From the IMG/VR virus record IMGVR_UViG_3300007597_000002: 64,000 nt of DNA; one strand, 5' to 3'. A program made the translations under genes and the position numbers. Below the pieces are notes generated by a model. That model made no database searches. It saw nothing but the letters and a program-made list of their open reading frames with translations, and was not told the DNA's origin. Source of the DNA: an uncultured virus (IMG/VR IMGVR_UViG_3300007597_000002). Its lineage: Duplodnaviria > Heunggongvirae > Uroviricota > Caudoviricetes. Below are positions 1,822 to 63,963 of this stretch, piece after piece (the first letter of the stretch is position 1; every line of letters starts with the position of its first letter).

Positions 1822-1824
1822 CAA

Positions 1825-2283: not shown

Positions 2284-2285
2284 CT

Positions 2286-2942: not shown

Positions 2943-2946
2943 ATAA

Positions 2947-2956
2947 TAAATAAATA
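2947..2956 (+). promoter_or_regulatory. T4-type late promoter (TAAATA) upstream of gp22
   Basis: ATAAATAAATA in the intergenic gap before the AGGAG RBS. Confidence 0.6.
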
Positions 2957-2984
2957 ACAGAACTATCCAGTTAGGAGAACATAG

Positions 2985-3983: not shown

Positions 3984-3999
3984 TAAAGGAAAACTAACT

Positions 4000-6395: not shown

Positions 6396-6397
6396 TA

Positions 6398-6961: not shown

Positions 6962-8445
6962 TGATTAAAATTGAAAAACTTGATGAAGTCTATGTTCGTG
7001 TCTTTTCTGATCCTAGCATTGAACAAGAATTAGTAGACTTCTTCACATACGAATATCCAGGTGCTAGATTTACACCACAATATCGAGCAAGATTGTGGGA
7101 TGGTAAAGTGCGTTTGTATGATGCAGTAAGAAAAACTCTTTATGTTGGTCTTGTTTCTTATGTACAAGAATTTGCCGAAAGGAATAATTATGAACTACAA
7201 TATGTCAAACCTGAACACTTCTTACAAAATGATATCGTATACAGTGACATTGAGCGATGGGTCGAAACACTCAATCCACAATCAAGAAACGAAGCGATCA
7301 CAGTCAGAGACTACCAGTGCGATGCTATCCATAAAGCAATTGCTAGTGACAGAGTACTACTCTTATCGCCGACTGCTTCAGGGAAATCGTTAATAATCTA
7401 TTCTATCTTACGATGGCATTTAGAAAATAATCGTAAGTGTATCATTATAGTTCCAACAACATCTCTTGTTGAGCAACTGTACACAGACTTTGAAGATTAC
7501 TCATCTGCAAATGGATGGGAAACAAAAGTTCATTGTCAAAAACTTTACAGCGGTTTCACTAAAGACTTTACCAAAGATGTTTTAGTAACAACTTGGCAAT
7601 CAGTCTATCTACAACCAAAATCTTGGTTCAAACAATTCGATGTTATCTTTGGTGATGAGGCTCACCAATTTAAAGCCAAATCTCTTACAGGGGTTATGGA
7701 AAAGATGGATACAGTCAAGTATCGTATTGGTACAACTGGAACACTTGACAATAAGAAAATTCATAAATTAGTTCTTGAAGGTGTCTTTGGTCCAATACAT
7801 AGAGTCACTACAACTAAAGCACTCATGGATTCTGGAAGGTTGTCTACCCTAAATATAATGTGTGTAATACTGAAGTACAATGAAGAGATTCGTAAAGGGC
7901 GAAAAAACAATACGTACCAAGAAGAAATGGATTGGCTTGTATCTTGTGAACCAAGAAATAAGTTTATCCGAAACTTGGCAGTAAATTCTAAAGGTAATAC
8001 GCTCGTTCTTTTTCAATACGTTGAAAAGCATGGCAAAGTCCTATACGAACTTATTAAAAATAAAGTGCATGATAAAAGAAAAGTTTTCTTTGTCTACGGT
8101 GGTACTGAAACCACTGATCGAGAAGCAATCCGTCATATTACAGAGGGGGAAAGTGACGCCATTATCATTGCTTCTTTTGGTACTTTTAGTACTGGAATTA
8201 ATATCCCATCATTGGAGAATGTAATTTTTGCGTCTCCATCTAAATCAAAGATTCGTAACCTGCAATCGATTGGTCGTGGGTTACGTTTAAAAGAAGGTAA
8301 GACTTCTTGTAATCTATTTGATCTTGCAGACGATCTTCATTGGAAGTCTTGGAAGAATCATACTTTAAATCATGCTGCAGAAAGATACAAAACGTATGCA
8401 GAAGAACAATTTAAAACAAAAATAGTAGAGGTAGACTTATGCTAA
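6961..8445 (+). CDS. uvsW: DNA helicase UvsW
   Basis: WDGKVRL, SPTASGKS, DEAH, GTTGT, LQSIGRGLR. Confidence 0.97.
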   Translation: MIKIEKLDEVYVRVFSDPSIEQELVDFFTYEYPGARFTPQYRARLWDGKVRLYDAVRKTLYVGLVSYVQEFAERNNYELQYVKPEHFLQNDIVYSDIERWVETLNPQSRNEAITVRDYQCDAIHKAIASDRVLLLSPTASGKSLIIYSILRWHLENNRKCIIIVPTTSLVEQLYTDFEDYSSANGWETKVHCQKLYSGFTKDFTKDVLVTTWQSVYLQPKSWFKQFDVIFGDEAHQFKAKSLTGVMEKMDTVKYRIGTTGTLDNKKIHKLVLEGVFGPIHRVTTTKALMDSGRLSTLNIMCVILKYNEEIRKGRKNNTYQEEMDWLVSCEPRNKFIRNLAVNSKGNTLVLFQYVEKHGKVLYELIKNKVHDKRKVFFVYGGTETTDREAIRHITEGESDAIIIASFGTFSTGINIPSLENVIFASPSKSKIRNLQSIGRGLRLKEGKTSCNLFDLADDLHWKSWKNHTLNHAAERYKTYAEEQFKTKIVEVDLC

Positions 8446-8891
8446 CAGACAAAGATGTCTATGTTGTTATAAAGTTAACCAATGGGGAACAGGTCATGGC
8501 TGTCCTCGAAGAAGAAGATGATAAGTATGTGCAACTTGGTAGTCCAATGACTATAAGAACTACACCAATAGTTGGTGAGGGGAGAGAACATATCACTGCG
8601 CATCCATATTGCCAATTCACAGATGATACATCTTTTTCTATAGAAAAGAAAAACGTAATGTTTATCAAACGTCTACACGAAATGATGATCCCTCATTATA
8701 GACGTATTGTTGCCCAACATAGCAATGATTGGCGAATCGAAAAGCCTGAACAGGAAGAACCATTTATTAGTTCTAGGGAAGCCAAGAAAAGAATCGCTAT
8801 GTTGGTAGGTATAGCTGGAGAAGAAGAGGAAGAAGTTGAAGATACTTCGATACCAAGTACTTACATAGATGGTAACGAGACTAAACATTAG
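8439..8891 (+). CDS. Conserved T4-like hypothetical protein (Sm-like fold likely)
   Basis: VIKLTNGEQVMA motif; position between uvsW and gp55. Confidence 0.65.
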   Translation: MLTDKDVYVVIKLTNGEQVMAVLEEEDDKYVQLGSPMTIRTTPIVGEGREHITAHPYCQFTDDTSFSIEKKNVMFIKRLHEMMIPHYRRIVAQHSNDWRIEKPEQEEPFISSREAKKRIAMLVGIAGEEEEEVEDTSIPSTYIDGNETKH

Positions 8892-8914
8892 TAGTCATCA
8901 ACCCTAACACAGTG

Positions 8915-8943
8915 ATTATGTCTCAAGTCAACTATAAAAGCAA
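8915..8943 (-). promoter_or_regulatory. Minus-strand sigma70-type promoter, divergent from gp55
   Basis: Reverse complement reads TTGCTT-17bp-CATAAT. Confidence 0.5.
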
Positions 8944-8967
8944 ATCTAAATTGTAATAAAAATATAT

Positions 8968-8996
8968 TTGTCTTTCTGTCATCGATGATGTATACT
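8968..8996 (+). promoter_or_regulatory. Sigma70-type promoter for gp55
   Basis: TTGTCT-17bp-TATACT. Confidence 0.75.
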
Positions 8997-9031
8997 ATGT
9001 GTAGTTTGAATTAAAGGATAAAAGAAATGCT

Positions 9032-9667
9032 ATGGCTCACTACGTAAACAACGCAGATTTTCTCGCAGCAATTGTTGAGATGCGACAAAAATATCAACAT
9101 GCAAAAGAAAACAATCTCCCAACACCCCAAGTAAGCAATTATATTGGTGAGTGCATTCTAAAGATAGCAACGCACTTATCATACAAACCTAACTTTCTAA
9201 ACTACTCTTATCGAGATGAAATGATCTCGGATGGTATAGAAAATTGTCTGCAATATATTAATAACTTTGATCCTGCAAAATCCAATAATCCTTTCGCATA
9301 TTTTACACAGATTATCTACTATGCATTTCTTCGTAGGATTGCCAAGGAAAAGAAACAGTCTTACATTAAAGGTAAGTTGATTCAGGACATGCCATTCGAG
9401 ATGTTCGAGTTACAAGAGCAAGATGAGACAGGTGAATTTAAGAATGCTTATTTAGATTTTATGCAGAACAATCATACCTTTGATGACTTTATCGATCGTA
9501 AGAAAGAAAAGGTTGCAAAGAGAAAAATGGAAAATACGTTGAACGCATTTATAGATGATGAGGTAAAAGATGGAACGATCGATACAGGATTGGATAGCGG
9601 AATTGAGCAAGGGAGTGAGCAGTCGCAAGTTTCCTTCGATTCGGAGACGCAGAAGCAAAGTAAATAA
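9032..9667 (+). CDS. gp55: Late-transcription sigma factor gp55
   Basis: HYVNNADF, YIGECILKIA, NYSYRDEMISDGIENCL, NPFAYFTQIIYYAFLRRIAKEKKQ. Confidence 0.97.
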   Translation: MAHYVNNADFLAAIVEMRQKYQHAKENNLPTPQVSNYIGECILKIATHLSYKPNFLNYSYRDEMISDGIENCLQYINNFDPAKSNNPFAYFTQIIYYAFLRRIAKEKKQSYIKGKLIQDMPFEMFELQEQDETGEFKNAYLDFMQNNHTFDDFIDRKKEKVAKRKMENTLNAFIDDEVKDGTIDTGLDSGIEQGSEQSQVSFDSETQKQSK

Positions 9668-10748
9668 AAGAACTATCAAGAAATTTGCTTGGGATTCAAG
9701 CGATAATCAATTTGCATTGAATAAAATTATGAACGAAAATACAAACGAAAAAATCTTTCTCGGTGTTAGTGACTTTGATGACTTAATCACTTCAGAGATC
9801 CTGAAGCGTCGTGTTGAAGCTGGCCAACGTACTATTCATCGTGAAACCAGTGTTCTCTGCAATCGAGAACAGTGGGCTGAATGGGCAGAGGAAATGTTTA
9901 AAGACGACCTCCATGTCCAAGGTAATTCCTCTAATGGTCTTATCATTGAACGTGATACAAACAATTACATTCGCTTTGATGTGAACAGTAATACTGTTTC
10001 TGTTCGTGCTTATGGTGATGCAGATTTTGCAGATGCTATTGTTGCGACAGTTGAATCTAACTTTGATATCGTAACATCTCACATCGAATGGGTTTATGGT
10101 AGCGAAGGTAACTCTGTCAATGTTCCATTGAATCGTGATCGTCTCCCAGTCGATGAAATGTATCCATTTCTAGATGGTGAAACACTTGGTGAATATTATG
10201 AACGCTACATGGCGTCTTCAGCGAATATCCTACTGTTGATTGGTCCTCCAGGAACTGGCAAGACTACATTCATTCGTGGATTGTTAGCACATACAAACTC
10301 ATCCGCAATCGTTTCATACGATTCTACGATTCTTGAGAAGGATGGTTTCTTTGCTCGCTTTATCGAGAGTGATGACAACGTAATGGTTCTTGAAGACTCT
10401 GATGCATTTTTAAAATCTCGCACTGATGGAAACACCATGATGCATCGTTTCCTAAATGTGGGTGATGGTCTTGTTACAACCAAAGGTAAGAAGATGATCT
10501 TCTCTACCAATCTCCCATCTATTCGTGATGTTGACTCTGCATTGGTTCGTCCAGGACGTTGCTTTGATATTCTAACTTTCGATACATTGAATGTTGAACA
10601 AGCAAACAACCTTGCTAAACGTCTTGGTGTTAATTTGGCTGTTCGTAAACGTGGTGATGAAACAAAACCATATAGCATCGCTGAGGTCTTCAATCAAAAG
10701 ACTGAAGGTATGTCAACTGCATCATCTAGAAGGGTTGGTTTTATCTAA
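9570..10748 (+). CDS. AAA+ ATPase (start may be 9570 or 9729)
   Basis: Walker A GPPGTGKT, Walker B VLEDSD, STN, RPGRCFD arginine finger. Confidence 0.85.
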   Translation: MERSIQDWIAELSKGVSSRKFPSIRRRRSKVNKRTIKKFAWDSSDNQFALNKIMNENTNEKIFLGVSDFDDLITSEILKRRVEAGQRTIHRETSVLCNREQWAEWAEEMFKDDLHVQGNSSNGLIIERDTNNYIRFDVNSNTVSVRAYGDADFADAIVATVESNFDIVTSHIEWVYGSEGNSVNVPLNRDRLPVDEMYPFLDGETLGEYYERYMASSANILLLIGPPGTGKTTFIRGLLAHTNSSAIVSYDSTILEKDGFFARFIESDDNVMVLEDSDAFLKSRTDGNTMMHRFLNVGDGLVTTKGKKMIFSTNLPSIRDVDSALVRPGRCFDILTFDTLNVEQANNLAKRLGVNLAVRKRGDETKPYSIAEVFNQKTEGMSTASSRRVGFI

Positions 10749-19810: not shown

Positions 19811-21286
19811 ATGAAGAAAATAATTGTACTAGGCGCAGGAACAGCAGGGTTAATCACTGCTCTCATTCTTAAATCTACCTTTCCGAAGTATCAAATCTCA
19901 GTTATTGAGTCTGGTGCGATTGGTATTATTGGAGTTGGTGAAGGTTCAACAGAACACTGGAAGATATTCACTGACTATTGTGGTATCAATACCAACAGAT
20001 TGATTCGAGAGACAGATGGTGCTCTTAAGAAGGGTATCAAATTTGAGAATTGGAATGGTGATGGTGCATCTTATTTTCACTCATTGTCTCCTCCATTCTT
20101 TGATGAGTTTACAGACAGTGGTCAACGTCTAAATTTTACGAAGTCTATGATCCATAAAGGTATTCCAACTGAAGATATTCTATTGGATACCAACTTTGTA
20201 ACACAACAATCTGGTATTCAAAGCACTAATCAATATCATTTTAACACTATGAAGTTAAATAAATTTCTTCATGATGTGTGTAAAGAAAAGGGTATTAATT
20301 TCACAGATGCCATTATTGATCAAGTGATGTTCTCAGAAAATGGAGATGTTGCTAAGTTAATAGACAATGCTGGTATTGAATATGTTGCAGATATCTTCAT
20401 TGATAGTTCTGGATTCAAGAGAGTGATTTCTTCTAAGCAGGGTGCTAAGTGGATCTCATATAAAAAATATCTGCCAATGAATCATGCATTAGCATTTCCA
20501 ACAAATGATATTTCTGATCTAAAACCCTATACACTTTCACGTGCTCTTGGCTCTGGTTGGAACTGGAGAATTTCTACTCAAGGAAGGTATGGTAATGGTT
20601 ATGTATTTTGTGATGAGTTCATTGATGCAACTAAAGCCCATGAAGAAATACAATCATTCTATACTGAAGAAGTAAAGGTAGCGAAGGATATTAAATTTGA
20701 TGCTGGTCGTGTAGACAAATATTGGATTGACAACTGTATCTCTGTTGGTCTTTCTGCATCATTTGTAGAACCACTTGAAGCATCTAGTATTGGTAACTCA
20801 ATCCTACAGGCTTTTGGCATTGCAAAGTTGCTACCTCTTTGGGAACTTGACCGAAAGTACGCAGAGAAGTATAATAAAGACTTCACTAGGTGCTTTGACA
20901 ATATTGTTGACTTTGTTCAGTTACATTACATGACCAAAAGAAATGATACTTTGTTCTGGAGAACTTTACCTGAGATGATGACTAAGACAGATTTTATCAA
21001 GGAACATTTAGAGATCTTTAAAAAGACAATACCGAATCAATCTCTTTTTATGGGCGAGTATCATATGTTCCAATCTCCAAATTGGGCTCAAGTAATGAAT
21101 GGTCTTGGTTTATTGGATAGAGAATACATTAGCAATAAGTTACAAGAAGTTAGTGGAGAAGGTGCTATTAAAGATTCATACGGAAGGTATGATGCATATC
21201 TAAATGATACAGAAAGGGGTTCTTACATCGAACACAAGACACTATTAGAACAGAATAGGATTGTTGTTAAACTTGACAGACGTTAA
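19811..21286 (+). CDS. Tryptophan halogenase-family flavoprotein
   Basis: GAGTAG, IGVGEGST, K.GIKFENW, FIDSSGF, GWNWRI, FVEPLEASSI. Confidence 0.88.
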   Translation: MKKIIVLGAGTAGLITALILKSTFPKYQISVIESGAIGIIGVGEGSTEHWKIFTDYCGINTNRLIRETDGALKKGIKFENWNGDGASYFHSLSPPFFDEFTDSGQRLNFTKSMIHKGIPTEDILLDTNFVTQQSGIQSTNQYHFNTMKLNKFLHDVCKEKGINFTDAIIDQVMFSENGDVAKLIDNAGIEYVADIFIDSSGFKRVISSKQGAKWISYKKYLPMNHALAFPTNDISDLKPYTLSRALGSGWNWRISTQGRYGNGYVFCDEFIDATKAHEEIQSFYTEEVKVAKDIKFDAGRVDKYWIDNCISVGLSASFVEPLEASSIGNSILQAFGIAKLLPLWELDRKYAEKYNKDFTRCFDNIVDFVQLHYMTKRNDTLFWRTLPEMMTKTDFIKEHLEIFKKTIPNQSLFMGEYHMFQSPNWAQVMNGLGLLDREYISNKLQEVSGEGAIKDSYGRYDAYLNDTERGSYIEHKTLLEQNRIVVKLDRR

Positions 21287-30258: not shown

Positions 30259-32741
30259 TGGAATTTTATACATCGGTTCATCCGATTGGAGACAAGATCT
30301 ATATTCGAGGTTATGAAAAGGGGAAACCTTACAAACGTAAACTAGATTTCCAACCAACATTTTATGTAACATCAAACAAACCCTCCAAGTGGAAAACACT
30401 GGAGGGAATTTTCGTTGATGAAATTAAACCTGGATCCATTCGAGATGCTCGAGACTTCGTCAAACGATATGATGAGGTAGAAGGCTTTGCTGTTTATGGT
30501 AATACCAACTATGCATATCAGTATATCAGTGACAACTATGACACTGTTAACTGGGACATGGAACAGATCAAAGTATTTACAATTGACATTGAAACTTCTA
30601 CAGAGAATGGTTTCCCAGATGTTCGTCTTGCCAATGAAGAAGTTCTTCTAATCACCATCAAAGATCTACAGTCAAAGCGCATTATCACTTTTGGTTCTAA
30701 ACCATTCGTGCATAATCGTGACGATGTAGTCTATATCACTTGTCGTGATGAACAACATTTGCTAAAAGAGTTTATGCTTTTCTGGCAAGACAATTATCCA
30801 GATGTTGTCACTGGTTGGAATACCGACTTCTTCGATATGCCATATCTTATTCGTAGGATTGATCGTGAACTTGGTGCAGATGTTTCTAAGAAAATTTCTC
30901 CATGGGGCATGATCAATGAGAGAAAGACATTCATTAAAGGTAATGAAGAACTTCATTACGATATCATTGGCATCTCTCAGCTAGATTATCTTGAACTCTA
31001 CAAGAAGTATACCTATTCAAAACAGGAATCATATCGCCTCGACTATATCGCTGAGCAAGAACTTGCTGACAAAAAGAAACCGAATCCTGGAGTTGACTTC
31101 AAAGATTTCTATACTAACTATTGGCAAGCATTTGTTGAGTATAACATCCATGACGTAGAGTTGGTTGACAAACTCGAAGACAAGATGCGACTTTTAGAGT
31201 TGCACCTGACCATGGCGTATGCTGCAAAGATTAATCCAGAAGATGTTTACTCACAGGTTCGTATGTGGGATACTATCATCTATAATCATTTACGTGCTCG
31301 TCATATTGTCATTCCTGCTAAAACACACTCTGGTAAAGATGCACAATTTGAAGGTGCGTATGTTAAAGATCCACTTGTTGGTATGCATAAGTGGGTGGCT
31401 TCCTTTGACTTGAACTCATTGTATCCGCATTTGATCATGCAATACAACATCAGCCCAGAGACTTTAACGTCTGAGAAGATGCCAGTCAATGTAGAGAAGT
31501 TGCTTAACAAAGAGATTGATCTTTCGTATGCAAAGCAACGAGATCTTTGTGTCACTGCGAATGGATGGACTTACACTAAAGAAGTCAAAGGGTTCATGCC
31601 TGAGTTGATGGAGAAGATGTATACTGACCGAAGCAAGTTTAAGAAACAGATGCTAAAGGTTCAACAGGAATACGAGAAAGACAAAACAAAGAAACATTTG
31701 TTGAAGGATATCTCTCGCTTAAACAATCTGCAGATGGCGATGAAGATTGCATTGAACTCTGCTTATGGTGCCATGGGTAATCAGTACTTCCGCTATTTCG
31801 ATATTCGTATGGCTGAAGGAATTACTACTTCTGGTCAGTTGTCTATTCGTTGGATGGCTAATAAGTTGAATGCATTCCTTAACAAGACTTTAAAGACCGA
31901 AGGTAAAGATTTTGTTATTGCGATTGACACTGACTCGATCTATCTAACTCTTGAAGAACTTGTTGAACGAACCTGTGAAGGTAAGACAACAGAACAAAAG
32001 ATCAAGTTTATGGATAAGATCTGCGAAGATGTTTTCCAACCATTCATTGATTCAGGTTACCAAGAGTTGGCTGATTATATGAATGCATATAGTCAAAAGA
32101 TGCAGATGAAGCGAGAGGTTCTTGCTGACAAGGCAATCTGGACTGCCAAGAAACGCTATGTTATTAATGTTCATAATTCAGAAGGTGTACAGTATGAGAA
32201 GCCTAAGATCAAAGTTATGGGTTTGGAAATGGTCAAGTCGAGTACACCTGCTGTTATTCGTGACAAACTCAAAGATTCGTTACAAGTTATTCTCTCGGGA
32301 GATGAAAAGAAACTACACACGTATGTCACAGAGTTTAAAAAAGAGTTTGTCAAATTACCGATCGAAGACATAGCATTCCCACGTGGTGTTAATGGTATGA
32401 AGCAGTATGCAGGTTCTCCGATTTATACAAAGGGAACTCCAATCCATGTTCGTGGTTCTTTGTTGTATAATCACTATACTAAAAAGATGGGACTAGATAA
32501 AAAGTACCAAGCGATTCGAGATGGTGATAAGATCAAGTTTGTTTATGTTCAAAAACCAAATCCATTACAAGAAGATATCATTGCATTCCCGCAACAACTT
32601 CCAAAGGAACTTGGATTGGAATCATACATAGATTATGACAAACAGTTCGAGAAAGTATTCTTGGACGCACTTCAAATTGTAATCGAACCATTGGGTTGGA
32701 AGACTCAAGAACAAAGTTCATTGGAGAACTTTTTTGGCTGA
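30258..32741 (+). CDS. gp43: Family B DNA polymerase gp43
   Basis: DIET exonuclease I, SFDLNSLYPH, KIALNSAYGAMGN, IDTDS, KKRY. Confidence 0.98.
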   Translation: MEFYTSVHPIGDKIYIRGYEKGKPYKRKLDFQPTFYVTSNKPSKWKTLEGIFVDEIKPGSIRDARDFVKRYDEVEGFAVYGNTNYAYQYISDNYDTVNWDMEQIKVFTIDIETSTENGFPDVRLANEEVLLITIKDLQSKRIITFGSKPFVHNRDDVVYITCRDEQHLLKEFMLFWQDNYPDVVTGWNTDFFDMPYLIRRIDRELGADVSKKISPWGMINERKTFIKGNEELHYDIIGISQLDYLELYKKYTYSKQESYRLDYIAEQELADKKKPNPGVDFKDFYTNYWQAFVEYNIHDVELVDKLEDKMRLLELHLTMAYAAKINPEDVYSQVRMWDTIIYNHLRARHIVIPAKTHSGKDAQFEGAYVKDPLVGMHKWVASFDLNSLYPHLIMQYNISPETLTSEKMPVNVEKLLNKEIDLSYAKQRDLCVTANGWTYTKEVKGFMPELMEKMYTDRSKFKKQMLKVQQEYEKDKTKKHLLKDISRLNNLQMAMKIALNSAYGAMGNQYFRYFDIRMAEGITTSGQLSIRWMANKLNAFLNKTLKTEGKDFVIAIDTDSIYLTLEELVERTCEGKTTEQKIKFMDKICEDVFQPFIDSGYQELADYMNAYSQKMQMKREVLADKAIWTAKKRYVINVHNSEGVQYEKPKIKVMGLEMVKSSTPAVIRDKLKDSLQVILSGDEKKLHTYVTEFKKEFVKLPIEDIAFPRGVNGMKQYAGSPIYTKGTPIHVRGSLLYNHYTKKMGLDKKYQAIRDGDKIKFVYVQKPNPLQEDIIAFPQQLPKELGLESYIDYDKQFEKVFLDALQIVIEPLGWKTQEQSSLENFFG

Positions 32742-33354
32742 ACATTCATACTACCCACTAGTAAACATACAAGACAGACGTGTAGTTCTTTCTGTTGATG
32801 ACTTCTTTGATTTAAAGGAACTTGATTATATTAGAAGTTGCTTAAACACAGAGAAGCCAACTGCTGCTATTGTTGGATATACTGATCCAAAGAATGTAGA
32901 AGACTACGAAAAGATGGTCAAGAAAGCACACGAACGTAGAAAGTCTAATGTATGTTTCTTGGACTTCTTTGAATATGAGTTTTTCTATAAAAAGTTATGT
33001 ACAGCAATTCACCATGTAAACCTTACTAATTTTAACAAAGTTTTATATGGTATAGAAGCATTACAGTTTGCAGAGTATGATTCTTTGTATGAAGGATTTT
33101 ATGGAGTCCATCCAGATGCTGTAAATACAGATAATGCATTAACAAGATCGTTATCATTTTCTATGCAGATGTCTAAACCAGAAGAGTATGAAGGTGGTGA
33201 AGTTCTAGTCTATGATGGTAATACTACATATACAGCAAACAAGAAATATGGATCAATTACATTCTTTGATTCTAGAATGTTACACGAAGTCACTCCTGTC
33301 ACCAGTGGCTTTAGAAGAAGTATAGTTGGATGGATTCTTGGACCAAGAGTATGA
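32734..33354 (+). CDS. 2OG-Fe(II) oxygenase (prolyl-hydroxylase / PKHD-like)
   Basis: HPD, YEGGE, FDSRMLHEVTPVTSGFRRSIVGW. Confidence 0.85.
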   Translation: MAEHSYYPLVNIQDRRVVLSVDDFFDLKELDYIRSCLNTEKPTAAIVGYTDPKNVEDYEKMVKKAHERRKSNVCFLDFFEYEFFYKKLCTAIHHVNLTNFNKVLYGIEALQFAEYDSLYEGFYGVHPDAVNTDNALTRSLSFSMQMSKPEEYEGGEVLVYDGNTTYTANKKYGSITFFDSRMLHEVTPVTSGFRRSIVGWILGPRV

Positions 33355-33899
33355 GCAACATTAGAATAATTAAAACTGGAATCAATGTTTCAAAGATATT
33401 GAAGCAACTTCAACAACATCCAACTGACTGGGATCATCAAAAACGAATTGAGGATATCGGTGACTCAACTCAATCTGGATGGAAATTTGCGCCAGTTGGT
33501 ACACTGCAATTAGTCATGGGAGGTGTTACAAACAAAGACGAATTTGTTGGTAACACTGAGATATGTATATCAACCAGAGCGATTGCTAATCATACAGAAG
33601 TTGTAGGATTCATGAGAAGAAATTTTAAGAAATTTAGTCGTTGTGGATTCCTAGCATTGCCAGTTGGTGAACGTGTAGAAAAACATATTGATCATGGGAC
33701 TTATTATCTTACAAGAGATCGATACCATCTATCAATCCAAGGTACGTATAGATACTTTTGCGGTGATGAATATGTAGATGTTGAACCTGGAACTTTGCTC
33801 TGGTTCAATAATAAACTTATGCATGGAACTGAAAACACAGGTGACTGTACACGAATTACATTTGTGTTCGATGTACCACACTCTAAGTCTAATCCATAG
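33351..33899 (+). CDS. Aspartyl/asparaginyl beta-hydroxylase-like 2OG oxygenase
   Basis: HIDHG.YY..RDRYHL, WFNNKLMH, RITFVFD. Confidence 0.8.
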   Translation: MSNIRIIKTGINVSKILKQLQQHPTDWDHQKRIEDIGDSTQSGWKFAPVGTLQLVMGGVTNKDEFVGNTEICISTRAIANHTEVVGFMRRNFKKFSRCGFLALPVGERVEKHIDHGTYYLTRDRYHLSIQGTYRYFCGDEYVDVEPGTLLWFNNKLMHGTENTGDCTRITFVFDVPHSKSNP

Positions 33900-37230: not shown

Positions 37231-38532
37231 ATGGTAAAAGTTATCGTAGCAAAAGAAAAGTTTGATTGTTCAAAGTTAGAAGGAACATTCGTAGACGAAT
37301 CTCATTATGATCATCTCATCGAAGAAGATACTGATGTTTACATGCCATCATCAATTGATGGTGGAGATCCTTACAGTGAGAAGCGTATTGTTCTAAAGTT
37401 TCGTAAGAACTACTTCACACAAGAGCAACAAGATCAAGCATATCTTGGTCTGAAAGATGCAGCAACTGAAACTCAGAACAGAGGTAAAGCAGCTGGACCA
37501 CGTGGCGACAAATTGGGTAATCGTGAGTGGGTTACTGAGTATGAATATGCCATCTTAGAATACTTTGAAGAAGCAAAGGCTATGCTTGGTGAAGATCCAG
37601 TTGAACAGATTCGTCAGAAATATAAAAACGCTGTTCAGAAACCATCCACACGAAATAATGTTTGGGGTATCCAAGCAGTTAAGAAAGATGGTTTTGATTT
37701 CGAGAAGTGGGTTGAAGCGACAAGCAAACTATCAGATACAGAACAACATTACGAATCCCTGCGCATTCAAAAGAAATATGTTTGTCCAACAACTTATGCT
37801 AATGGAGTTCTTTCTGGCATTGCTGGTTGGTTCGATCGTTACCCACGTATCCCTTATGGTCGTGCTACTTCTTATACTGCAAATAACTTTGAAAAGTTTA
37901 AGATGTCATATCCATTCCTTCAGCAACTATCTAAAGGATTTAAGGAATATCTTCCAGAGCGTTTTGCAGCGCAGATGTCTGCAGCAAACAAACTTGATTC
38001 AGCATTCTTAGTTCCTGAAACTCCATTCACAACTATCACTGTTAACAATACATTTAGAACTGCTGCTCACTACGATGCAGGTGACTTGAATGAAGGTTTG
38101 TCGAATCTATTGACATTGTCTAATGATGGTAAGTATACTGGTGGATATCTGATTGCTCCTGAGTATCGTGTTGCAGTTAATCCACGTCCAGGTGATTTGC
38201 TTCTTATCAACAATCACGAAGTTATGCATGGTAATACTCCGATTGTTTGTCCAGAAGGTTCAGAGCGTATTAGTCTTGTTGTTTACTTCAGAGAAAAGAT
38301 GCTCGAGTTGGGTAGCAAAGCATATGAAGATGCACGCTATGAATATGTAGAGGGACGCAGGTTAAATAAAGAACACCCAGAACATAAAGATCGCCATCTT
38401 TGGAATGGTGTTACTGCAGGTATGTGGGATGAGAAAGAGTGGTATGACTTCTTGAGTGCTAAACAGGGTGGTGAAGATATGCTTGCTAAATATCATCCTA
38501 CAACCAAAGGTGCTCTTGAGGAGTTTTTCTAA
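37231..38532 (+). CDS. TET/JBP-family 2OG-Fe(II) nucleobase dioxygenase
   Basis: PFTTITVNNTFRTAAHYDAGD (HxD), GGYL..PEY, PGDLLL...HGNT, RISLVVYFREKM. Confidence 0.85.
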   Translation: MVKVIVAKEKFDCSKLEGTFVDESHYDHLIEEDTDVYMPSSIDGGDPYSEKRIVLKFRKNYFTQEQQDQAYLGLKDAATETQNRGKAAGPRGDKLGNREWVTEYEYAILEYFEEAKAMLGEDPVEQIRQKYKNAVQKPSTRNNVWGIQAVKKDGFDFEKWVEATSKLSDTEQHYESLRIQKKYVCPTTYANGVLSGIAGWFDRYPRIPYGRATSYTANNFEKFKMSYPFLQQLSKGFKEYLPERFAAQMSAANKLDSAFLVPETPFTTITVNNTFRTAAHYDAGDLNEGLSNLLTLSNDGKYTGGYLIAPEYRVAVNPRPGDLLLINNHEVMHGNTPIVCPEGSERISLVVYFREKMLELGSKAYEDARYEYVEGRRLNKEHPEHKDRHLWNGVTAGMWDEKEWYDFLSAKQGGEDMLAKYHPTTKGALEEFF

Positions 38533-38534
38533 TA

Positions 38535-39230
38535 ATGTGTTCCATAATTGGTGCTGTGTTAAAGAATCCTCGTCATGAGGATTTTGAAATGATTCGTAGA
38601 GTATTCCTTGAGTCTAAGATTCGAGGAATGCATGCGACAGGTATATCTTTTTTACCGCATTGGAGTAAGTCAGTTGTAACTATCAAAGAAGCAATGCCAT
38701 CTGATAGATTTATTGATACTCATATGCATATTGATAATATGAAGGAGATGGTTAATGACGATGGTACTCTTTACCTTATTGGTCACTGTAGATATAGCAC
38801 TAGCGATTTATCTTATAATCAACCGCTAGCAAATGAATTGAAGTCCATTGTTCATAATGGAGTTATTACACAAGAACTTCCTGAGAACTGGGGTAACATT
38901 TATCCTTACACATTTGAAACTAAGAATGACTCTGAGTTAGTATTACATTCAGATGACCCACTCAGAGAGTTCCCAGATGCATCTATGGCAGTGTGTGAAC
39001 TTTATGTAGATCGTAAGTTGCGATTCTATCGTAATGGTAAACGTCCATTATACTTGACAAGTATTGAATGTGGGAGTATAATTACCTCTACGGCAGATGT
39101 TCCAAAACGTGCTGAGGTTGCAGGGTTTCCAGTTAATGTTCTTATGAATCATTACAATACATTTGATGGTGACCTTGCATTGACGATTGAGCGAGTTGAT
39201 ATTAAAGATGCATTAGATTACCAAAAATGA
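38535..39230 (+). CDS. Class II (Ntn) glutamine amidotransferase-like protein, stand-alone
   Basis: Cys2 (MCSIIG), IRGMHATG, GHCRYST, NQP, HNGVI, NDSE. Confidence 0.85.
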   Translation: MCSIIGAVLKNPRHEDFEMIRRVFLESKIRGMHATGISFLPHWSKSVVTIKEAMPSDRFIDTHMHIDNMKEMVNDDGTLYLIGHCRYSTSDLSYNQPLANELKSIVHNGVITQELPENWGNIYPYTFETKNDSELVLHSDDPLREFPDASMAVCELYVDRKLRFYRNGKRPLYLTSIECGSIITSTADVPKRAEVAGFPVNVLMNHYNTFDGDLALTIERVDIKDALDYQK

Positions 39231-39865
39231 TATTAGTTGATTTAGCAAAAGTAGAAAACATTATTTCAAATATTCCAGCTGGTAAGAATACAAAATTCTT
39301 ATCGGCTGCACATTCATTATGGTATCGGTTTCACAATTATGACAAAGCATTACCAATGGCTTATGAAGTTAATGGTGATGTTGTTTGTTTAATCTTTGCT
39401 ACATTCAATCGTGATGGTTATGCCAACCTGTATGAGATCGTAACACTCGAAGGAAAAGAAGGAAATGGATACGCATCAAAGTGTTGGGACGCATGGATTA
39501 AATACGCAGTCGAAGAACGAAAGTCTAAACGACTTAAAATCTCTTGCACACCTTCTTCAGTCACATGGCATTATCGCAATGGACTCATCTTCTGGGCAGT
39601 TGACCCGACTGGCTCGTTACGTTCTGACCAACCATTATTCTCAACTAGGCAAGAGCAAATTAGCTACAGAAATAATGCTATTATCAATCCATCCTCTGCT
39701 CTGCCACCAAGCAAAGCACAAGATCAGTTTAGGTTAGAAGGATTAGAATTATATAAATGGGGTGACAAGAAGAAAGAAAAAACTCAAACAGCAATTGATG
39801 CAGTTGGTACAGCATGGCTACGAGATGCTCTTATGAATCAACCAACACTACAAGAATTTTTATAA
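39227..39865 (+). CDS. GNAT-family acetyltransferase
   Basis: LYEIVTLEGKEGNGYAS (motif A), SVTWHYRNGL. Confidence 0.7.
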   Translation: MILVDLAKVENIISNIPAGKNTKFLSAAHSLWYRFHNYDKALPMAYEVNGDVVCLIFATFNRDGYANLYEIVTLEGKEGNGYASKCWDAWIKYAVEERKSKRLKISCTPSSVTWHYRNGLIFWAVDPTGSLRSDQPLFSTRQEQISYRNNAIINPSSALPPSKAQDQFRLEGLELYKWGDKKKEKTQTAIDAVGTAWLRDALMNQPTLQEFL

Positions 39866-40881
39866 TGGATTATCGTTTACAAGAAAATCGTAAAGAAGCA
39901 TTCATACGCTGGTACGCATGGTCATTGAAGTATGATGATTGTGATCCAGCAGTATGGGCAACGAACTATCTTAATAAAAGATATGAACACAATGATGAAC
40001 AGCGTCTTTGGTTTGCATGGCTTTATGGTAATACATACCAGTTGCAAACTGCATGGGTACTAATGAATGAGTTTCCTGATTATGAATTAGCAACAGTTGA
40101 TAGAATCACTCAATGGAATACAGCTAACTATAAGAGACTACGATATCAAACTGATACAAAGTGGAACAAAGGACATCTTCCTGCCATGTTCGAGTCTTAC
40201 CAAAAATTTATAGGAAGTGGAACACAACGTGATAGGATGGAAAGTTTTTATGCATCATCAGAGGAAGACACTTTTGATAGACTGTGGGATGGGGTTAAGT
40301 CGAGCCTGCATAAATTTGGTCGTTATTCCACTTGGTTTTACTTACAGCATCTTAAACATACTGCTGGCATCTCTGTTAATCCTACTTCTCTCATGCTGGA
40401 CGATTATGATGGTTCCCGTAGTCATCGTAATGGACTTCTGTATGCCCTTGGACAAGAATCCGATTGTGATCGAAGACTCAGTAATATGGAGTATTCAAAC
40501 CTCGAAGTACATGCAAAAGAAATTCTGGAAGAAAGTAAAAGACGATTCCCTGACTTAGCAGGACAGATTGATTTCTTTACCATGGAAACCTGCTTGTGTT
40601 CTTTTAAGAAACTATTCAGAGAACACCATGGACGTTACCTTGGTTACTATCTAGATCGTCAGGCTGAAGAGATTGTTAAAGCAGAGAATGATAGTTGGTA
40701 TGGTATTGATTGGGATGTTCTTTGGCAAGCACGTGAAGAAACAATTGATTTTAGATTAGACCATAAACGTGGTATCGATAAAGAAAGGTTTTCTTCTTTC
40801 CTGAATTCAGGTAAATTAGAAAATTTAGAATGGATGTTTAATGATGAAGAATCTATACTAATTGGATTGGAGAATTTTTAA
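39865..40881 (+). CDS. Amino-acid:DNA transferase (aGPT-Pplase2 family, HhH-glycosylase-like)
   Basis: DCDP, WLYGNTY, HhH-like KFGRYSTWFYLQ, ETCLCSFKK, GRYLGYYLDRQ. Confidence 0.82.
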   Translation: MDYRLQENRKEAFIRWYAWSLKYDDCDPAVWATNYLNKRYEHNDEQRLWFAWLYGNTYQLQTAWVLMNEFPDYELATVDRITQWNTANYKRLRYQTDTKWNKGHLPAMFESYQKFIGSGTQRDRMESFYASSEEDTFDRLWDGVKSSLHKFGRYSTWFYLQHLKHTAGISVNPTSLMLDDYDGSRSHRNGLLYALGQESDCDRRLSNMEYSNLEVHAKEILEESKRRFPDLAGQIDFFTMETCLCSFKKLFREHHGRYLGYYLDRQAEEIVKAENDSWYGIDWDVLWQAREETIDFRLDHKRGIDKERFSSFLNSGKLENLEWMFNDEESILIGLENF

Positions 40882-44086: not shown

Positions 44087-44836
44087 ATGAAAGATTACAA
44101 ACAATTATTAAAAGAACTCCCATCTAAAACGGTAGTTCTAGCCTGTGGTAAGTTTAACCCTCCAAACGTGGGTCATGAACTTATTGTAAAGGCTGTCAAA
44201 GCACTGGCTGAGCAACGTAGCGCAGACCACGTAATCTATGCATCCACTGTTAGCGATGCGAAAAAGAATCCACTATTAGTAGAAAAGAAACTTCAGTATT
44301 TGAATCTGATTTTTCCTAAGACCAACTTTGTCGAATCTGAAAAGAATTTGGTAGATATCGTTAAGAGTCTAAAAGAAAACTATTCAAATATTATTTTAGT
44401 GACTGGCGCAGAAGTTCCACGAGCACTAAAGAAGTATAATGTTACTGTTATCAATACTGGAGAAAGCGATCCAGACGAATCTGAAACTATTCGTTCATTC
44501 GCTTCCAAGGGATTGTATGAACAGTTTAAGAAAGCACTACCATCATCTATTAGAGATCTTGATAGTCGTAGATTAATGAATGACATAAGAACTGGTCTTG
44601 GTTTAGATATAATCAAAGAGCAGATCAATCTAGTTAAAGACGATATTCGTGAGATGTATCACTCAGGTGAAATCTTTAATGTCGGAGAAGTTGTTGAGTC
44701 TAATGGTAAGAAGTATGAGATTGTTAAGCGTGGTTCAAACCATCTACTATTAAAAGAAGACTCTGGTAAATTAGTATCTAAATGGATACAAGATGTTAAA
44801 ATAATTACATTTAAAGAACATATAAAAAATGGATGA
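44087..44836 (+). CDS. Cytidylyltransferase-like (HxGH) protein, short paralog
   Basis: GKFNPPNVGH, DAKKNPL; N-terminal MKDYKQLLKE. Confidence 0.75.
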   Translation: MKDYKQLLKELPSKTVVLACGKFNPPNVGHELIVKAVKALAEQRSADHVIYASTVSDAKKNPLLVEKKLQYLNLIFPKTNFVESEKNLVDIVKSLKENYSNIILVTGAEVPRALKKYNVTVINTGESDPDESETIRSFASKGLYEQFKKALPSSIRDLDSRRLMNDIRTGLGLDIIKEQINLVKDDIREMYHSGEIFNVGEVVESNGKKYEIVKRGSNHLLLKEDSGKLVSKWIQDVKIITFKEHIKNG

Positions 44837-45275
44837 ACTAAAAACAGCAATCAAAGTCCTGTTGGCAAATACAACAGTGATGTACTATAAGGCTCATCAA
44901 TTTCATTGGAACATTGAGGGCATAGAGTTCACTCAATTCCATGAATTCTTTGGAGATCTGTATACTGATGTTTATAACTCAGTAGATCCAATTGGTGAAC
45001 TGCTACGTAAGTTAGATGATTATGCTCCAGTCAGTTTAGATGACCTGTTTAAGTATAAAACATTACAGGAAGAGACTACCAGAGTAGAACTTCTTTCTGA
45101 TATTCTGGCTAGTCTTATTAAAGCAAATGAGGAAGTCTTGGCTAGCCTAAATAAAGTGTTCACTATTGCAAATGCAGACAAACAACAAGGTATTTGTAAT
45201 TTTATTGCGGATAGAATAGATACACACCAGAAGCATGCATGGTTCTTACGTGCTTCTGCTAAGAAAATAGGATAA
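44829..45275 (+). CDS. dps: Dps / ferritin-like DNA protection protein
   Basis: KAHQFHWNIEG.EF..FHEFF..LY, D...E, HQKHAWFLR. Confidence 0.9.
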   Translation: MDELKTAIKVLLANTTVMYYKAHQFHWNIEGIEFTQFHEFFGDLYTDVYNSVDPIGELLRKLDDYAPVSLDDLFKYKTLQEETTRVELLSDILASLIKANEEVLASLNKVFTIANADKQQGICNFIADRIDTHQKHAWFLRASAKKIG

Positions 45276-53438: not shown

Positions 53439-54470
53439 ATGCTCTATATTGACAACAAATATGCACAAATCCTTGGCGGTCGTCTAAGGAACTTCACAAA
53501 GAAGAAAGACTATCTCTGGAACTTTTCATGTCCAGTGTGCGGAGATAGTTCAACCAACAAACTAAAAGCACGTGGTTACATCTTTCGTGCCAAAGCAGAT
53601 CTTTTCGTAAAATGTCACAACTGTGGTTACAGTACCAATCTCGGTAACTTAATCAAGTATGTCGATACTAAGTTATATGATGAATATGTTCTTGAACGCT
53701 ACAAAGGTGGCGCAACAAGATACAATGATCACAAAGACATTGCTGATACCAGTGTCACTCTAGAAACTCCCACAGAAGATTTACTCGAAGATGATATCTT
53801 ATCATCTCTCTCAAGAATTGATAAACTACCACTGACACACCCAGCAGTTAAGTATGTTATCGAACGAAAGATTCCACGTGAAAACTGGAGTCTTTTGTAC
53901 TTTGCTCCGAAGTTTAAAGCATTCACCAATTCAGTGACTGCTAAATTCCAAGAGCCAATTAAGGATGAACATCCTCGTATGATCATTCCTTTCTTTACAC
54001 CAGCAGGTAAGTGTTTTGCTTTTCAAGGCAGAGCATACGGTAAAGAAGAACCTAAGTATTATACCATTAAGGTTGATGAAACACAGGAGAAAATTTATGG
54101 ACTCGATCGCTTGGATTATAGCAAACGCATTTACGTGGTCGAAGGACCAATTGACTCGCTTTTCATACCGAATTGTGTGGCTGTGTCAGGAAGCAGTTTT
54201 GATACCCCTACTATCAGGCAGTTACTTACTAATGCAACTTTAATAATGGATAATGAGCCAAGAAGTAAAGAGATTGTAAAACTTCTTGACAAAAATATAA
54301 AGGCAGGTTATTCTGTTTGTATGTTTCCAGAACATATCCAACAAAAAGATATAAATGATATATTTTTACATAGCGGAATGACCATAGATGAGATTTTAGA
54401 GACGATAAATACAAATACCTTCACAGGTATTGAAGCGAGTCTTAAATTTAGTACATGGAAAAAAATATGA
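53439..54470 (+). CDS. gp61: DNA primase gp61
   Basis: CPVCGDS, CHNCG, FQGR, VVEGPIDSLF, DNEPR, KDIND. Confidence 0.96.
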   Translation: MLYIDNKYAQILGGRLRNFTKKKDYLWNFSCPVCGDSSTNKLKARGYIFRAKADLFVKCHNCGYSTNLGNLIKYVDTKLYDEYVLERYKGGATRYNDHKDIADTSVTLETPTEDLLEDDILSSLSRIDKLPLTHPAVKYVIERKIPRENWSLLYFAPKFKAFTNSVTAKFQEPIKDEHPRMIIPFFTPAGKCFAFQGRAYGKEEPKYYTIKVDETQEKIYGLDRLDYSKRIYVVEGPIDSLFIPNCVAVSGSSFDTPTIRQLLTNATLIMDNEPRSKEIVKLLDKNIKAGYSVCMFPEHIQQKDINDIFLHSGMTIDEILETINTNTFTGIEASLKFSTWKKI

Positions 54471-55135
54471 ATGTTAGAATGATTAGTTATAGTAAACCCT
54501 CTCGAGAGATGTATGATGAGGGTTTGTTAGATGTACAGGAGTTGGTTGCGTTCTGTGCACGTGTGAGCAATCCAAGTAACCAATTCAACACAGAGACATC
54601 AGAGAAGTTAATTAAGTATTTAATTAAACATCAACACTGGTCACCACTAGAGATGGTTAGTGCATGTTTAGAAATTGAAACTACTCGTGATATAGCAAGA
54701 CAAATGCTACGTCATCGATCTTTCTCTTTCCAAGAATTTAGCCAACGATATGCAGATCCAACCAAAGACTTATCTTTCGTTCTTAGAGAAGCCCGACTCC
54801 AAGATACGAAGAATCGTCAAAATAGCGTTGAGAATAATAATCTAGCATTGGCTGCATGGTGGGAAGAAAGGCAGAAGCGAGTTATTGAAGAAGCAAGAAA
54901 TGCTTATGACTGGGCAATTACCAACGGTATTGCCAAAGAACAAGCAAGAGCAGTACTACCAGAAGGACTGACTGTTTCTCGTTTGTACATGAATGGTACG
55001 TTGCGTAGCTGGATTCATTTTATCGAACTCCGATCTGCAAATGGTACACAAAAAGAACACCAAGAAGTCGCACGTGAGTGCGCAAAGGTAATTGCTGAGG
55101 TATTTCCTCTAGCAAATGAATTAGTAAAACTATAA
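54467..55135 (+). CDS. thyX: Flavin-dependent thymidylate synthase ThyX
   Basis: HWSPLEM, RHRSFSFQEFSQRY, ARAVLP, LRSW, QKEH. Confidence 0.95.
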   Translation: MNVRMISYSKPSREMYDEGLLDVQELVAFCARVSNPSNQFNTETSEKLIKYLIKHQHWSPLEMVSACLEIETTRDIARQMLRHRSFSFQEFSQRYADPTKDLSFVLREARLQDTKNRQNSVENNNLALAAWWEERQKRVIEEARNAYDWAITNGIAKEQARAVLPEGLTVSRLYMNGTLRSWIHFIELRSANGTQKEHQEVARECAKVIAEVFPLANELVKL

Positions 55136-56949: not shown

Positions 56950-57489
56950 ATGTTAGAAGGTATAAATCAGTGGGACTCTTTCTTCACAAAAGAAGAATAT
57001 GATAATGTTGACAAAGAACTATTAAATCATGAGTGGGTTTTTGGTGCCAGTCCCAATAATAATTTACTTGAAGGTAATAAGGTAAGACAATTCTGGTATA
57101 AAGACTTGATGGAGTCTGAATATATTAAAGAGTTGTTTAGATTCAGAACAGAAGATTATCTAAATGCAAAAGTAGAGACAATGCGTCTCTACGCAAATGG
57201 ACAATCACATGGAATGGCAGGACATATACATGAGGATGTTCCACCAGATGAACCTGGAATTTGTGGTAGTATAGTATATTTCTTTCAGGCTGACTGGAAA
57301 CCAGAATATGGTGGGCATTTAATCTTCTTGTCACCAGAAGATCCAAACAGAGTGATGTTGTCAGTATTCCCGAGATCAAACTCCGCAGTTATATTCAACT
57401 CAAAGTTATCTCACATGGCATTCGATCCATCAGTATACTGTACAAATCAAAGAATAAGCATAGCATATAAATTTAGGGTAAAAGAATGA
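56950..57489 (+). CDS. 2OG-Fe(II) oxygenase
   Basis: RLYANGQ, HED, W..EYGG, H, RISIAYK. Confidence 0.82.
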   Translation: MLEGINQWDSFFTKEEYDNVDKELLNHEWVFGASPNNNLLEGNKVRQFWYKDLMESEYIKELFRFRTEDYLNAKVETMRLYANGQSHGMAGHIHEDVPPDEPGICGSIVYFFQADWKPEYGGHLIFLSPEDPNRVMLSVFPRSNSAVIFNSKLSHMAFDPSVYCTNQRISIAYKFRVKE

Positions 57490-63573: not shown

Positions 63574-63963
63574 ATGGCTTACTCAGACAAAGTTATTGAT
63601 CATTATGAAAATCCACGTAACGTGGGTTCTCTAGACAAAAACGATCCAACAGTTGGTACTGGTATGGTTGGTGCACCAGCATGTGGTGATGTGATGAAAT
63701 TACAAATACAGGTAGATGAAGATGGTATTATTAGAGATGCTAAGTTCAAGACATATGGCTGTGGTTCAGCAATCGCCAGTTCGTCGCTGGTTACAGAGTG
63801 GGTTAAGGGTATGCATATTGATGATGCTGTTAACTTACGCAACTCTCAGATTGCCGAAGAACTAGCATTACCTCCAGTTAAGATTCACTGCTCTATACTT
63901 GCGGAAGATGCAATCAAAGCAGCAGTAAACGACTATAAAGAAAAACATGATCTCGTTAACTGA
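63574..63963 (+). CDS. iscU: Fe-S cluster scaffold IscU
   Basis: YSDKVIDHYENPRNVG, APACGDVM, KTYGCGSAIASSS, LPPVKIHCS. Confidence 0.97.
   Translation: MAYSDKVIDHYENPRNVGSLDKNDPTVGTGMVGAPACGDVMKLQIQVDEDGIIRDAKFKTYGCGSAIASSSLVTEWVKGMHIDDAVNLRNSQIAEELALPPVKIHCSILAEDAIKAAVNDYKEKHDLVN

Follow-up and report, generated by a model that had tools for sequence, protein, structure and literature searches.

A stand-alone class II glutaminase and its amino acid:DNA transferase partner in a T4-like phage operon: a proposed ammonia route to 5-aminomethyl-deoxyuridine in DNA

What does a glutaminase domain do when it is encoded in a phage DNA modification operon with no synthase domain attached to it? This question is raised by a stretch of 64,000 nucleotides, referred to here in its full length as the window, from the uncultured virus IMGVR_UViG_3300007597_000002 of IMG/VR. 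Two adjoining genes at 38535..39865 encode a class II, or N-terminal nucleophile (Ntn), glutaminase of 231 residues and a GNAT-fold protein of 212 residues, and they are followed by the gene for an amino acid:DNA transferase (AADT). An earlier note on this DNA, made from the sequence alone, had placed the two open reading frames (ORFs) at exactly these coordinates with the Ntn protein between a dioxygenase, which is a Tet/JBP-type enzyme (Tet), and the GNAT; this observation was confirmed, and models support both folds. Both genes are real and under selection. We propose, with a probability of roughly 60%, that the Ntn protein serves as the glutaminase component in a split amidotransferase whose ammonia is used to form 5-aminomethyl-deoxyuridine (5-aminomethyl-dU) in DNA, and that the resulting amine is then acylated by the GNAT. 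The gene set itself has already been published and it is the role proposed for the glutaminase that is new here.

The Ntn protein begins with MCSIIG and contains the HNG and NDSE motifs at residues 107-109 and 131-134. When it was aligned with PurF and GlmS using a profile of 30 relatives, Cys2, R30-G31, R86-Y87-x-T89, H107-N108-G109 and N131-D132-x-E134 fell on catalytic or glutamine-binding positions. We take the roles of these residues to be those of their PurF and GlmS counterparts, with the Asn-Gly pair forming the oxyanion hole and the Arg, Thr and Asp residues holding the alpha-carboxylate and alpha-amino groups of glutamine. The aligned residues are invariant or nearly so in the 30 close relatives, among which Cys2 is invariant, and Cys2, R30, R86, T89, N108, G109 and D132 are also invariant in 71 representatives that are 30-56% identical to the window protein. 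The AlphaFold model (predicted local distance difference test score, pLDDT, of 94) has the four-layer Ntn fold of the GlmS/PurF type, and Foldseek matched it to the GlmS glutaminase domain, PurF and EgtC with E-values from 1e-10 to 6e-9 (1xff, E 1.9e-10; 1ao0, E 2.4e-10; 1ecf, E 3.1e-9; EgtC 4zfj, E 5.6e-9). A whole-library profile search yielded 5078 relatives at E <= 1e-3, and 209 clusters remained when the limit was set at E <= 1e-30. Among the best 150 representatives, 140 are 197-257 residues long, six are fragments and four are long proteins, and 144 begin with MC, the other six being fragments or having upstream starts. By alignment and model, the protein is a single complete glutaminase domain in which the site for free glutamine is conserved, and glutaminase activity is predicted for it. 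The catalytic Cys2, the two motifs and the missing synthase domain, all of which the earlier note had pointed out, are borne out by these results.

The identity of the partner of the Ntn protein was examined in two sets of IMG/VR loci. Set 1 was fetched with the Ntn, the GNAT and a family alignment and contains 108 distinct Ntn genes, and set 2 comes from a scan ranked on a distant representative and contains 70 further distinct Ntn genes. In set 2 the AADT is encoded downstream of the Ntn gene at 59 of the 70 loci, the contigs of the remaining 11 end less than 3 kb past the Ntn gene, and an Ntn gene with room for an AADT but without one was found at 0 of the 70. The slot between the two genes (n = 59) is occupied by a GNAT in 26 cases, by an amidoligase, a GNAT and a ParB protein in 14, by an amidoligase and a GNAT in nine, by an amidoligase alone in three and by an amidoligase with a window-type GNAT in one, and it is empty, so that the two genes are adjacent, in six. 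In set 1 the gene after Ntn encodes a window-type GNAT at 80 of the 108 loci and an amidoligase-like protein at 27, and is cut off at one. A survey of co-occurrence of the Ntn/GNAT pair with the AADT (under its former name aGPT-Pplase2) had been suggested in the earlier note; the association with the AADT holds wherever the contig suffices, and that with the GNAT is variable (26/59). The note's description of the Ntn and GNAT as an unusual tailoring pair is not supported by these counts: it is the AADT that partners the Ntn constantly, and the GNAT belongs to a group of modules that are swapped or absent. Nor is the combination rare: a relative is encoded in at least 549 IMG/VR stretches, and the text of PMC13229309 already reports glutamine amidotransferase (GATase), kinase and AADT genes with thymine dioxygenases.

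The genes that accompany the pair differ widely. The amidoligase-like protein matches Pfam Amidoligase_2 weakly in L025 (E 0.004) and clearly in the fused protein P0128 (E 4.6e-8), and its gene is usually followed by that of a different GNAT (Acetyltransf_10, E 1e-9) and often by that of a ParB_N protein. Where Ntn and AADT are directly adjacent, minimal and alternative clusters of other phage types were seen. In L207 and L219 a guanylate-kinase-like kinase, the Ntn and the AADT are followed by terminase, without a tailoring gene. In L201 the pair precedes a kinase of the HMUDK_HMUD1 family, a TET-associated glycosyltransferase-like protein, an ORF without a Pfam hit and a ThyA-like gene that takes the place of Tet, and in L177 it precedes an FkbM methyltransferase and then an HMUDK_hel kinase. 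In L179 and L198 the order is HMUD2 kinase, Ntn, AADT, amidoligase and GNAT (all by Pfam). The products of the L177, L201 and L207 clusters may be aminomethyl bases in methylated, glycosylated or bare form. Because the Ntn-AADT pair is kept across kinase families, sources of 5-hydroxymethyluracil (5hmU) and tailoring genes, it is the pair that is constant and the GNAT that is optional, and we propose that the Ntn is part of the core amine-installing step and that the GNAT carries out an exchangeable tailoring step.

The ParB_N protein is limited to cassettes of the amidoligase type and was found in none of the window type. In L029 it is a 431-residue protein (ParB_N, E 5e-8) encoded between the second GNAT and the AADT, an arrangement shared by 14 set 2 loci, and it recalls the ParB-dependent thymine dioxygenases described in the text of PMC13229309.

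Fusions of the Ntn domain were also determined. Six fused proteins emerged when longer relatives were sought, and in these the Ntn is joined to an AADT (P0129 and P0130), to a GNAT of the window-type family with 57% identity to the window GNAT (P0125 and P0127) or to an amidoligase (P0126 and P0128). Two additional Ntn-AADT fusions, P0234 and P0273, came from the profile search and were assigned by Pfam and hhalign (probability 100, E 5.5e-68). The four long proteins among the best 150 representatives comprise three Ntn-AADT fusions (P0130, P0234 and P0273) and one Ntn-amidoligase fusion. P0129 shares 36% identity with the window AADT over its AADT portion (E 8e-65), and the Ntn-AADT fusions have the same N-to-C order as true class II amidotransferases. 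In all of the fusions the Ntn domain is N-terminal, in keeping with a Cys nucleophile that needs a free N-terminus. P0234 and P0130 are only 37% identical, so the Ntn-AADT fusion has been kept in diverged lineages. A viral scan with P0129 and one metagenome scan, both seeking contigs with the fusion, returned no relative, and there was no match either when P0275 and P0219, each a single distant representative, were used for viral scans.

In the window the Ntn gene belongs to a six-gene translationally coupled operon in the order Tet/JBP, Ntn, GNAT, AADT, u147 (a 147-residue protein) and P-loop kinase (Table 1). The successive junctions are TAATAATG, ATGA, TAATG, TAATG and an 8-base overlap, with the stop codon of Ntn overlapped by the ATG of GNAT in the ATGA. 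A longer AADT ORF starting at 39814 would overlap GNAT by 52 bases. We place the AADT start at 39865, in the TAATG shared with the GNAT stop, because the relatives begin with MDYRL and many have stops in the 17 upstream codons; judged from these sequences, the longer ORF is probably not the form used. The u147 protein is variable and missing from some related cassettes; a protein atlas search with it found no match, and an NCBIfam search added no names.

The substrate that reaches the AADT can be deduced from its neighbors. Genome-wide absences were judged on the records of four relatives that are at least 96% complete, the nearest record being a 61.6-kb fragment, and in all four a C5-methyltransferase, a ThyA-like enzyme and ParB_N are absent. 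The lack of the first two, together with the presence of ThyX in the window, argues that Tet oxidizes thymine in DNA, and we infer that thymine is most likely its substrate and 5hmU its product. Thymine has been argued to be the Tet substrate for such contigs in the text of PMC8989533, and its oxidation by other phage 5mYOX enzymes is shown in that of PMC13229309. The kinase is 24% identical (E 3e-6) to gp49, the 5-hmdU DNA kinase of phage PaMx11, and the AADT is 26% identical (E 7e-26) to the serine:DNA transferase gp247 of ViI. With hhalign there was no profile similarity between the window AADT and PaMx11 gp46, though both belong to the ADDT family, and an E-T-C-L-C stretch in the window protein matches Glu243, Thr244 and Cys247 of gp46, the residues given as its site in the text of PMC11472151, by motif only and unaligned. 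In the mechanism proposed for AADTs in PMC8989533, as its text describes it, a nucleophile attacks the exocyclic methylene derived from 5-phosphomethyl-dU. A flavin lyase, a pyridoxal phosphate (PLP) enzyme and a radical S-adenosylmethionine (SAM) enzyme were not found in the module by Pfam; in the interval 30258-50742, which contains 21 ORFs, no ORF matches a FAD/DAO-type Pfam family, and neither do the ORFs without an assignment at E-values up to 1.

The GNAT was assigned mainly by its predicted structure. The model (pLDDT 83.7) has 138 matches in the PDB at E <= 0.001 by Foldseek, the best being 9dsb (E 4.7e-6), and comparison by VIA gave a Z of 10.9 and a root-mean-square deviation of 2.4 A over 127 residues (9mto_B). 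Residues 1 to ~140 of the model are clearly a GNAT fold, and this core is followed by a helical C-terminal addition of ~70 residues ending in PTLQEFL. A profile search of the PDB gave an E-value of 0.81 at best. The fused homologue P0127 scores 25.4 bits against Acetyltransf_1, and many other homologues have a precomputed PF00583 hit. G76-x-x-G79-x-G81 is invariant in the relatives and lies where the loop for the pyrophosphate of coenzyme A (CoA) is expected. Across the compared loci the GNAT is 76-100% identical, a conservation equal to that of the replication proteins, versus 42-100% for Ntn and 43-100% for Tet. No similarity between the window GNAT and PaMx11 gp48 was detected by hhalign.

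The C-terminal ends of several of these enzymes resemble that of the family B polymerase (polB). The pattern L[EQ][ENK]F is present in the last eight residues of four of the 79 window ORFs, versus 0.12 expected from its overall frequency; these are polB, Tet, GNAT and AADT (Table 1). Of 55 distinct GNAT relatives, 52 retain the tail, as do most relatives of Tet; Ntn, u147 and u231, the protein encoded after the kinase, are without it. From its sequence it may be a docking tail for the sliding clamp. Isoelectric points do not separate the Ntn protein from the enzymes predicted to act on DNA.

The route that we favor would proceed as follows. Tet would oxidize thymine in the phage DNA to 5hmU, which the P-loop kinase would convert to 5-phosphomethyl-dU. 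Cys2 of the Ntn protein would hydrolyze free L-glutamine and the ammonia would be handed to the AADT, which would displace the phosphate with ammonia instead of an amino acid to give 5-aminomethyl-dU, the Ntn and AADT together constituting a split class II glutamine amidotransferase. Finally, the GNAT, probably with acetyl-CoA, would cap the amine to give a base of the acetylaminomethyl type. Such a route would yield a base like that of PaMx11 without glycine or a flavin lyase, and its AADT step would parallel PurF, in which a phosphoryl leaving group is displaced by ammonia. It would account for the absence of flavin lyase, PLP and radical SAM genes, for minimal clusters that consist of kinase, Ntn and AADT only, for the assorted amine-modifying enzymes found beside the pair, and for the Ntn alone being without the polymerase-like tail.

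In a broader form, to which we give somewhat less than even odds, Ntn and AADT would form a class II glutamine amidotransferase of an undescribed kind, with a nucleobase in polymeric DNA as its direct acceptor (5-phosphomethyl-dU to 5-aminomethyl-dU). The amine would be a hub that is left bare, acetylated by a GNAT, acylated by an amidoligase or methylated by FkbM, mirroring nm5U, mnm5U and cmnm5U in tRNA, and the enzymes that touch DNA may ride the sliding clamp by means of their tails.

Several points weigh against the ammonia route. The AADT substrates characterized in the texts of PMC8989533 and PMC13458397 are glycine, serine, putrescine and 1,3-diaminopropane, with no case of ammonia among them, and the nearest of the characterized enzymes to the window AADT, a transferase of serine, shares no more than 26% identity with it. 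The Ntn fold is matched nearly as well by EgtC, which hydrolyzes gamma-glutamyl amides, as by the amidotransferases. Since the Ntn occurs in fusions with GNATs and amidoligases as well, its fusion to the AADT may reflect mere adjacency or a multi-enzyme complex, and the Ntn-amidoligase fusions would suit delivery of ammonia to a ligase just as well. The GNAT scores 18.8 bits against Pfam Acetyltransf_1 (E 0.002), below the cut-off of 20.7, and acetyl-CoA is no more than its probable acyl donor.

The amidoligases suggest one different use of the ammonia. The AADT could install an amino acid, the carboxylate of which would be amidated with ammonia from the Ntn and the alpha-amine of which would be capped by the GNAT; in the variant cassettes the amidoligase would activate the carboxylate, and in the window some other activity would have to do so. 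The Ntn-amidoligase fusions P0126 and P0128 have an order like that of asparagine synthetase, and an amidoligase-like gene directly follows Ntn at 27 of the 108 set 1 loci and at 27 of the 59 loci typed in set 2. We nevertheless consider this unlikely: the window and most cassettes (80/108) are without an ATP-dependent ligase, the minimal kinase-Ntn-AADT clusters are without any ligase, and among the representatives the Ntn-AADT fusions outnumber the Ntn-amidoligase fusions by three to one. The same amidoligase genes, together with the fold match to EgtC, can be read in yet another way, in which the Ntn resembles EgtC in function and, by hydrolyzing a gamma-glutamyl amide, unmasks an amine on a DNA-linked or free intermediate, for example after glutamine has been attached through its amide nitrogen and the gamma-glutamyl group is to be removed. 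An amidoligase combined with an Ntn hydrolase follows the logic of EgtA and EgtC. An amide nitrogen would be a chemically poor nucleophile for the AADT step, though, no ligase is encoded in the window, the polymerase-like tail of the enzymes predicted to act on DNA is missing from the Ntn, and the fusions with an N-terminal glutaminase and a C-terminal AADT resemble amidotransferases and not hydrolases, all of which makes this a slightly poorer prospect still. The earlier note had offered either ammonia supply or cleavage of a DNA-linked glutamine/glutamate adduct as the function of the Ntn, in both cases leaving 5-aminomethyluracil for the GNAT to acetylate. Ammonia supply followed by acylation is favored and adduct cleavage is less likely because of the Ntn-AADT fusions, the invariable linkage, the absence of a flavin lyase from the operon and the conserved site for free glutamine; overall, the interpretation in that note is partly supported.

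It is also conceivable that the Ntn, the GNAT or both act outside DNA modification, with the Ntn feeding glutamine-derived 2-oxoglutarate (2OG) to 2OG oxygenases, or the GNAT acetylating a protein or a polyamine. The window does contain five 2OG-Fe(II) oxygenase genes, and the best structural matches of the GNAT include spermidine and protein N-terminal acetyltransferases. Set against this are the tight translational coupling in the operon, an Ntn-AADT linkage that is constant in unrelated phage types with differing kinases and 5hmU sources, the existence of Ntn-AADT fusions and the polymerase-like tail on the GNAT, and we regard such a role as very improbable.

The window is a section of a T4-like phage genome, with a G+C content of ~37% and with nearly all genes on the + strand. 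It encodes portal, gp23, UvsY, UvsW, the clamp, the clamp loader, RegA, the family B polymerase, UvsX, a DnaB-type helicase, ThyX and a ribonucleotide reductase. The positions of the operon genes, of the tails and of the other features mentioned are collected in Table 1.

Table 1. Positions of the operon genes, C-terminal tails and other features in the window, and of features in related loci.
Feature	Position	Strand	Evidence and remarks
Tet/JBP-type 5-methylpyrimidine dioxygenase, 433 aa	37231..38532	+	Pfam Tet_JBP, E 3e-23, residues 220-355; ends in GALEEFF
Stand-alone class II (Ntn) glutaminase domain, 231 aa	38535..39230	+	Pfam GATase_6, E 5e-7; model; conserved residues
GNAT-fold protein, 212 aa	39227..39865	+	Pfam Acetyltransf_1, E 0.002; model; proposed N-acyl (acetyl) transferase for a DNA-borne amine
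AADT, 338 aa	39865..40881	+	Pfam ADDT (formerly aGPT-Pplase2), E 4e-21
u147, 147 aa	40881..41324	+	Translationally coupled on both sides; no family assigned
P-loop kinase, 200 aa	41317..41919	+	Pfam Ploopntkinase3, E 2.4e-9; putative 5hmU-DNA kinase, predicted product 5-phosphomethyl-dU
u231, 231 aa	41940-42635		pI (isoelectric point) 9.7; HELIH motif
polB tail	32718-32741		SLENFFG
Tet tail	38509-38532		ALEEFF
GNAT tail	39842-39865		TLQEFL
AADT tail	40858-40881		GLENF
ThyX	54455-55135
dATP/dGTP diphosphohydrolase N-terminal domain match, 141 aa	18295-18720		PF18909, E 2.7e-34
Tryptophan-halogenase-family flavoprotein	19811-21286		Pfam Trp_halogenase, E 1e-96; full length
2OG-Fe(II) oxygenase/cupin-type genes	6368-6961; 32734-33354; 33330-33899; 56950-57489
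Ferritin	44829-45275
NifU-like protein	63574-63963
L207 cluster	6367-8637		Pfam
L201 cluster	26-4564		Pfam
L177 cluster	7001-10469		Pfam
L029 ParB_N protein	8141-9436		ParB_N

The gene after the kinase, separated from it by a 20-base gap, encodes the basic protein u231, which has a zincin-like motif and is kept at the same position in most related cassettes of both types. A faint SprT-like hint was obtained for it (Pfam E 0.16; atlas 0.85), and its other atlas matches are viral hypothetical clusters only. The halogenase-family gene is located between the sliding clamp and clamp-loader genes and is odd content for a phage replication module. In addition to Tet and the four other oxygenase/cupin-type genes, ferritin, NifU-like, thioredoxin, GroES and Hsp20 genes are present. 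This set of genes suggests a heavy investment by the phage in iron and 2-oxoglutarate chemistry.

Thymidine hypermodifications shield phage DNA from restriction, as stated in the texts of PMC8989533 and PMC13458397, and modification enzymes are of interest for DNA chemistry. If the proposal is correct, feeding an AADT with ammonia would add a new reaction to those carried out on DNA and a new type of acceptor to those of glutamine amidotransferases, and a role would be provided for the GATase genes listed without one in the texts of PMC13229309 and PMC8989533. Additionally, since environmental phages, both T4-like and other, carry this family in abundance, the product base may be common in nature.

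Among known systems, the closest in gene content are the metavirome Tet/JBP clusters of 5mYOX clade C1. According to the texts of PMC13229309 and PMC8989533, Tet_JBP replaces the dUMP hydroxymethylase in these clusters, a C5-methyltransferase is absent and kinase, AADT and GATase occur together; the window shares these features. That Tet/JBP, GATase, kinase and AADT genes are found together is thereby published, with no role given for the GATase in those texts, and genes with glutaminotransferase or amidoligase Pfam matches are called of unknown function there. Literature and term look-ups, which included the texts of PMC13458397 and PMC11472151, found no GATase function and no ammonia in thymidine hypermodification, though the figures and supplementary datasets of PMC13229309 and PMC8989533 may show the cassette. 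The published 5mYOX subclass is defined by an accompanying ParB (text of PMC13229309), whereas the window-type cassette is without ParB_N, which was found neither in the nearest record nor in five related records.

In GenBank phages the Ntn protein matched only GATases of the PaP3, phiM6 and StenR_269 type, at ~25% identity, and neither a megablast search with the module nor a tblastn search with the GNAT gave a match. Those clusters (amidoligase/GAT-II/ATP-grasp/GGCT) likewise pair a class II GATase domain with amidoligases, but their GATases are 380-517 residues long and carry additional C-terminal segments, and the annotation shows no AADT, kinase or Tet adjacent to them. Among cultured phages, those with the nearest homologues of Tet (DLP6, Cr30 and C48C1) have no Ntn or GNAT alongside. 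EgtC, with chains of 227-230 residues, is close in size and also consists of a class II GATase-like domain standing alone. It takes a gamma-glutamyl group off a small molecule alongside EgtA and EgtB, whereas the window encodes neither EgtA nor EgtB.

The route to 5-acetylaminomethyl-dU in PaMx11 involves the kinase gp49, the glycine:DNA transferase gp46, the FAD lyase gp47 and the acetyltransferase gp48, and the nominal masses of 5-NmdU and 5-AcNmdU are 257 u and 299 u (text of PMC8989533). Like PaMx11, the window combines in a single cluster a kinase, a transferase of the AADT family and an acetyltransferase of the GNAT type, and the type of end product is likely the same. The two differ in that 5hmU in the window would come from Tet acting on DNA instead of from a dUMP hydroxymethylase, and in that the Ntn glutaminase is found where PaMx11 has its MnmC1-like FAD lyase, a contrast that the earlier note had drawn correctly. 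Compared with PurF and GlmS, the Ntn glutaminase is a separate polypeptide, and its proposed acceptor is an AADT working on polymeric DNA and not a known synthase domain; it has in common with them the N-terminal Cys, the Arg/Tyr/Thr, Asn-Gly and Asp site, the fold and, in its fused relatives, an N-terminal position of the glutaminase.

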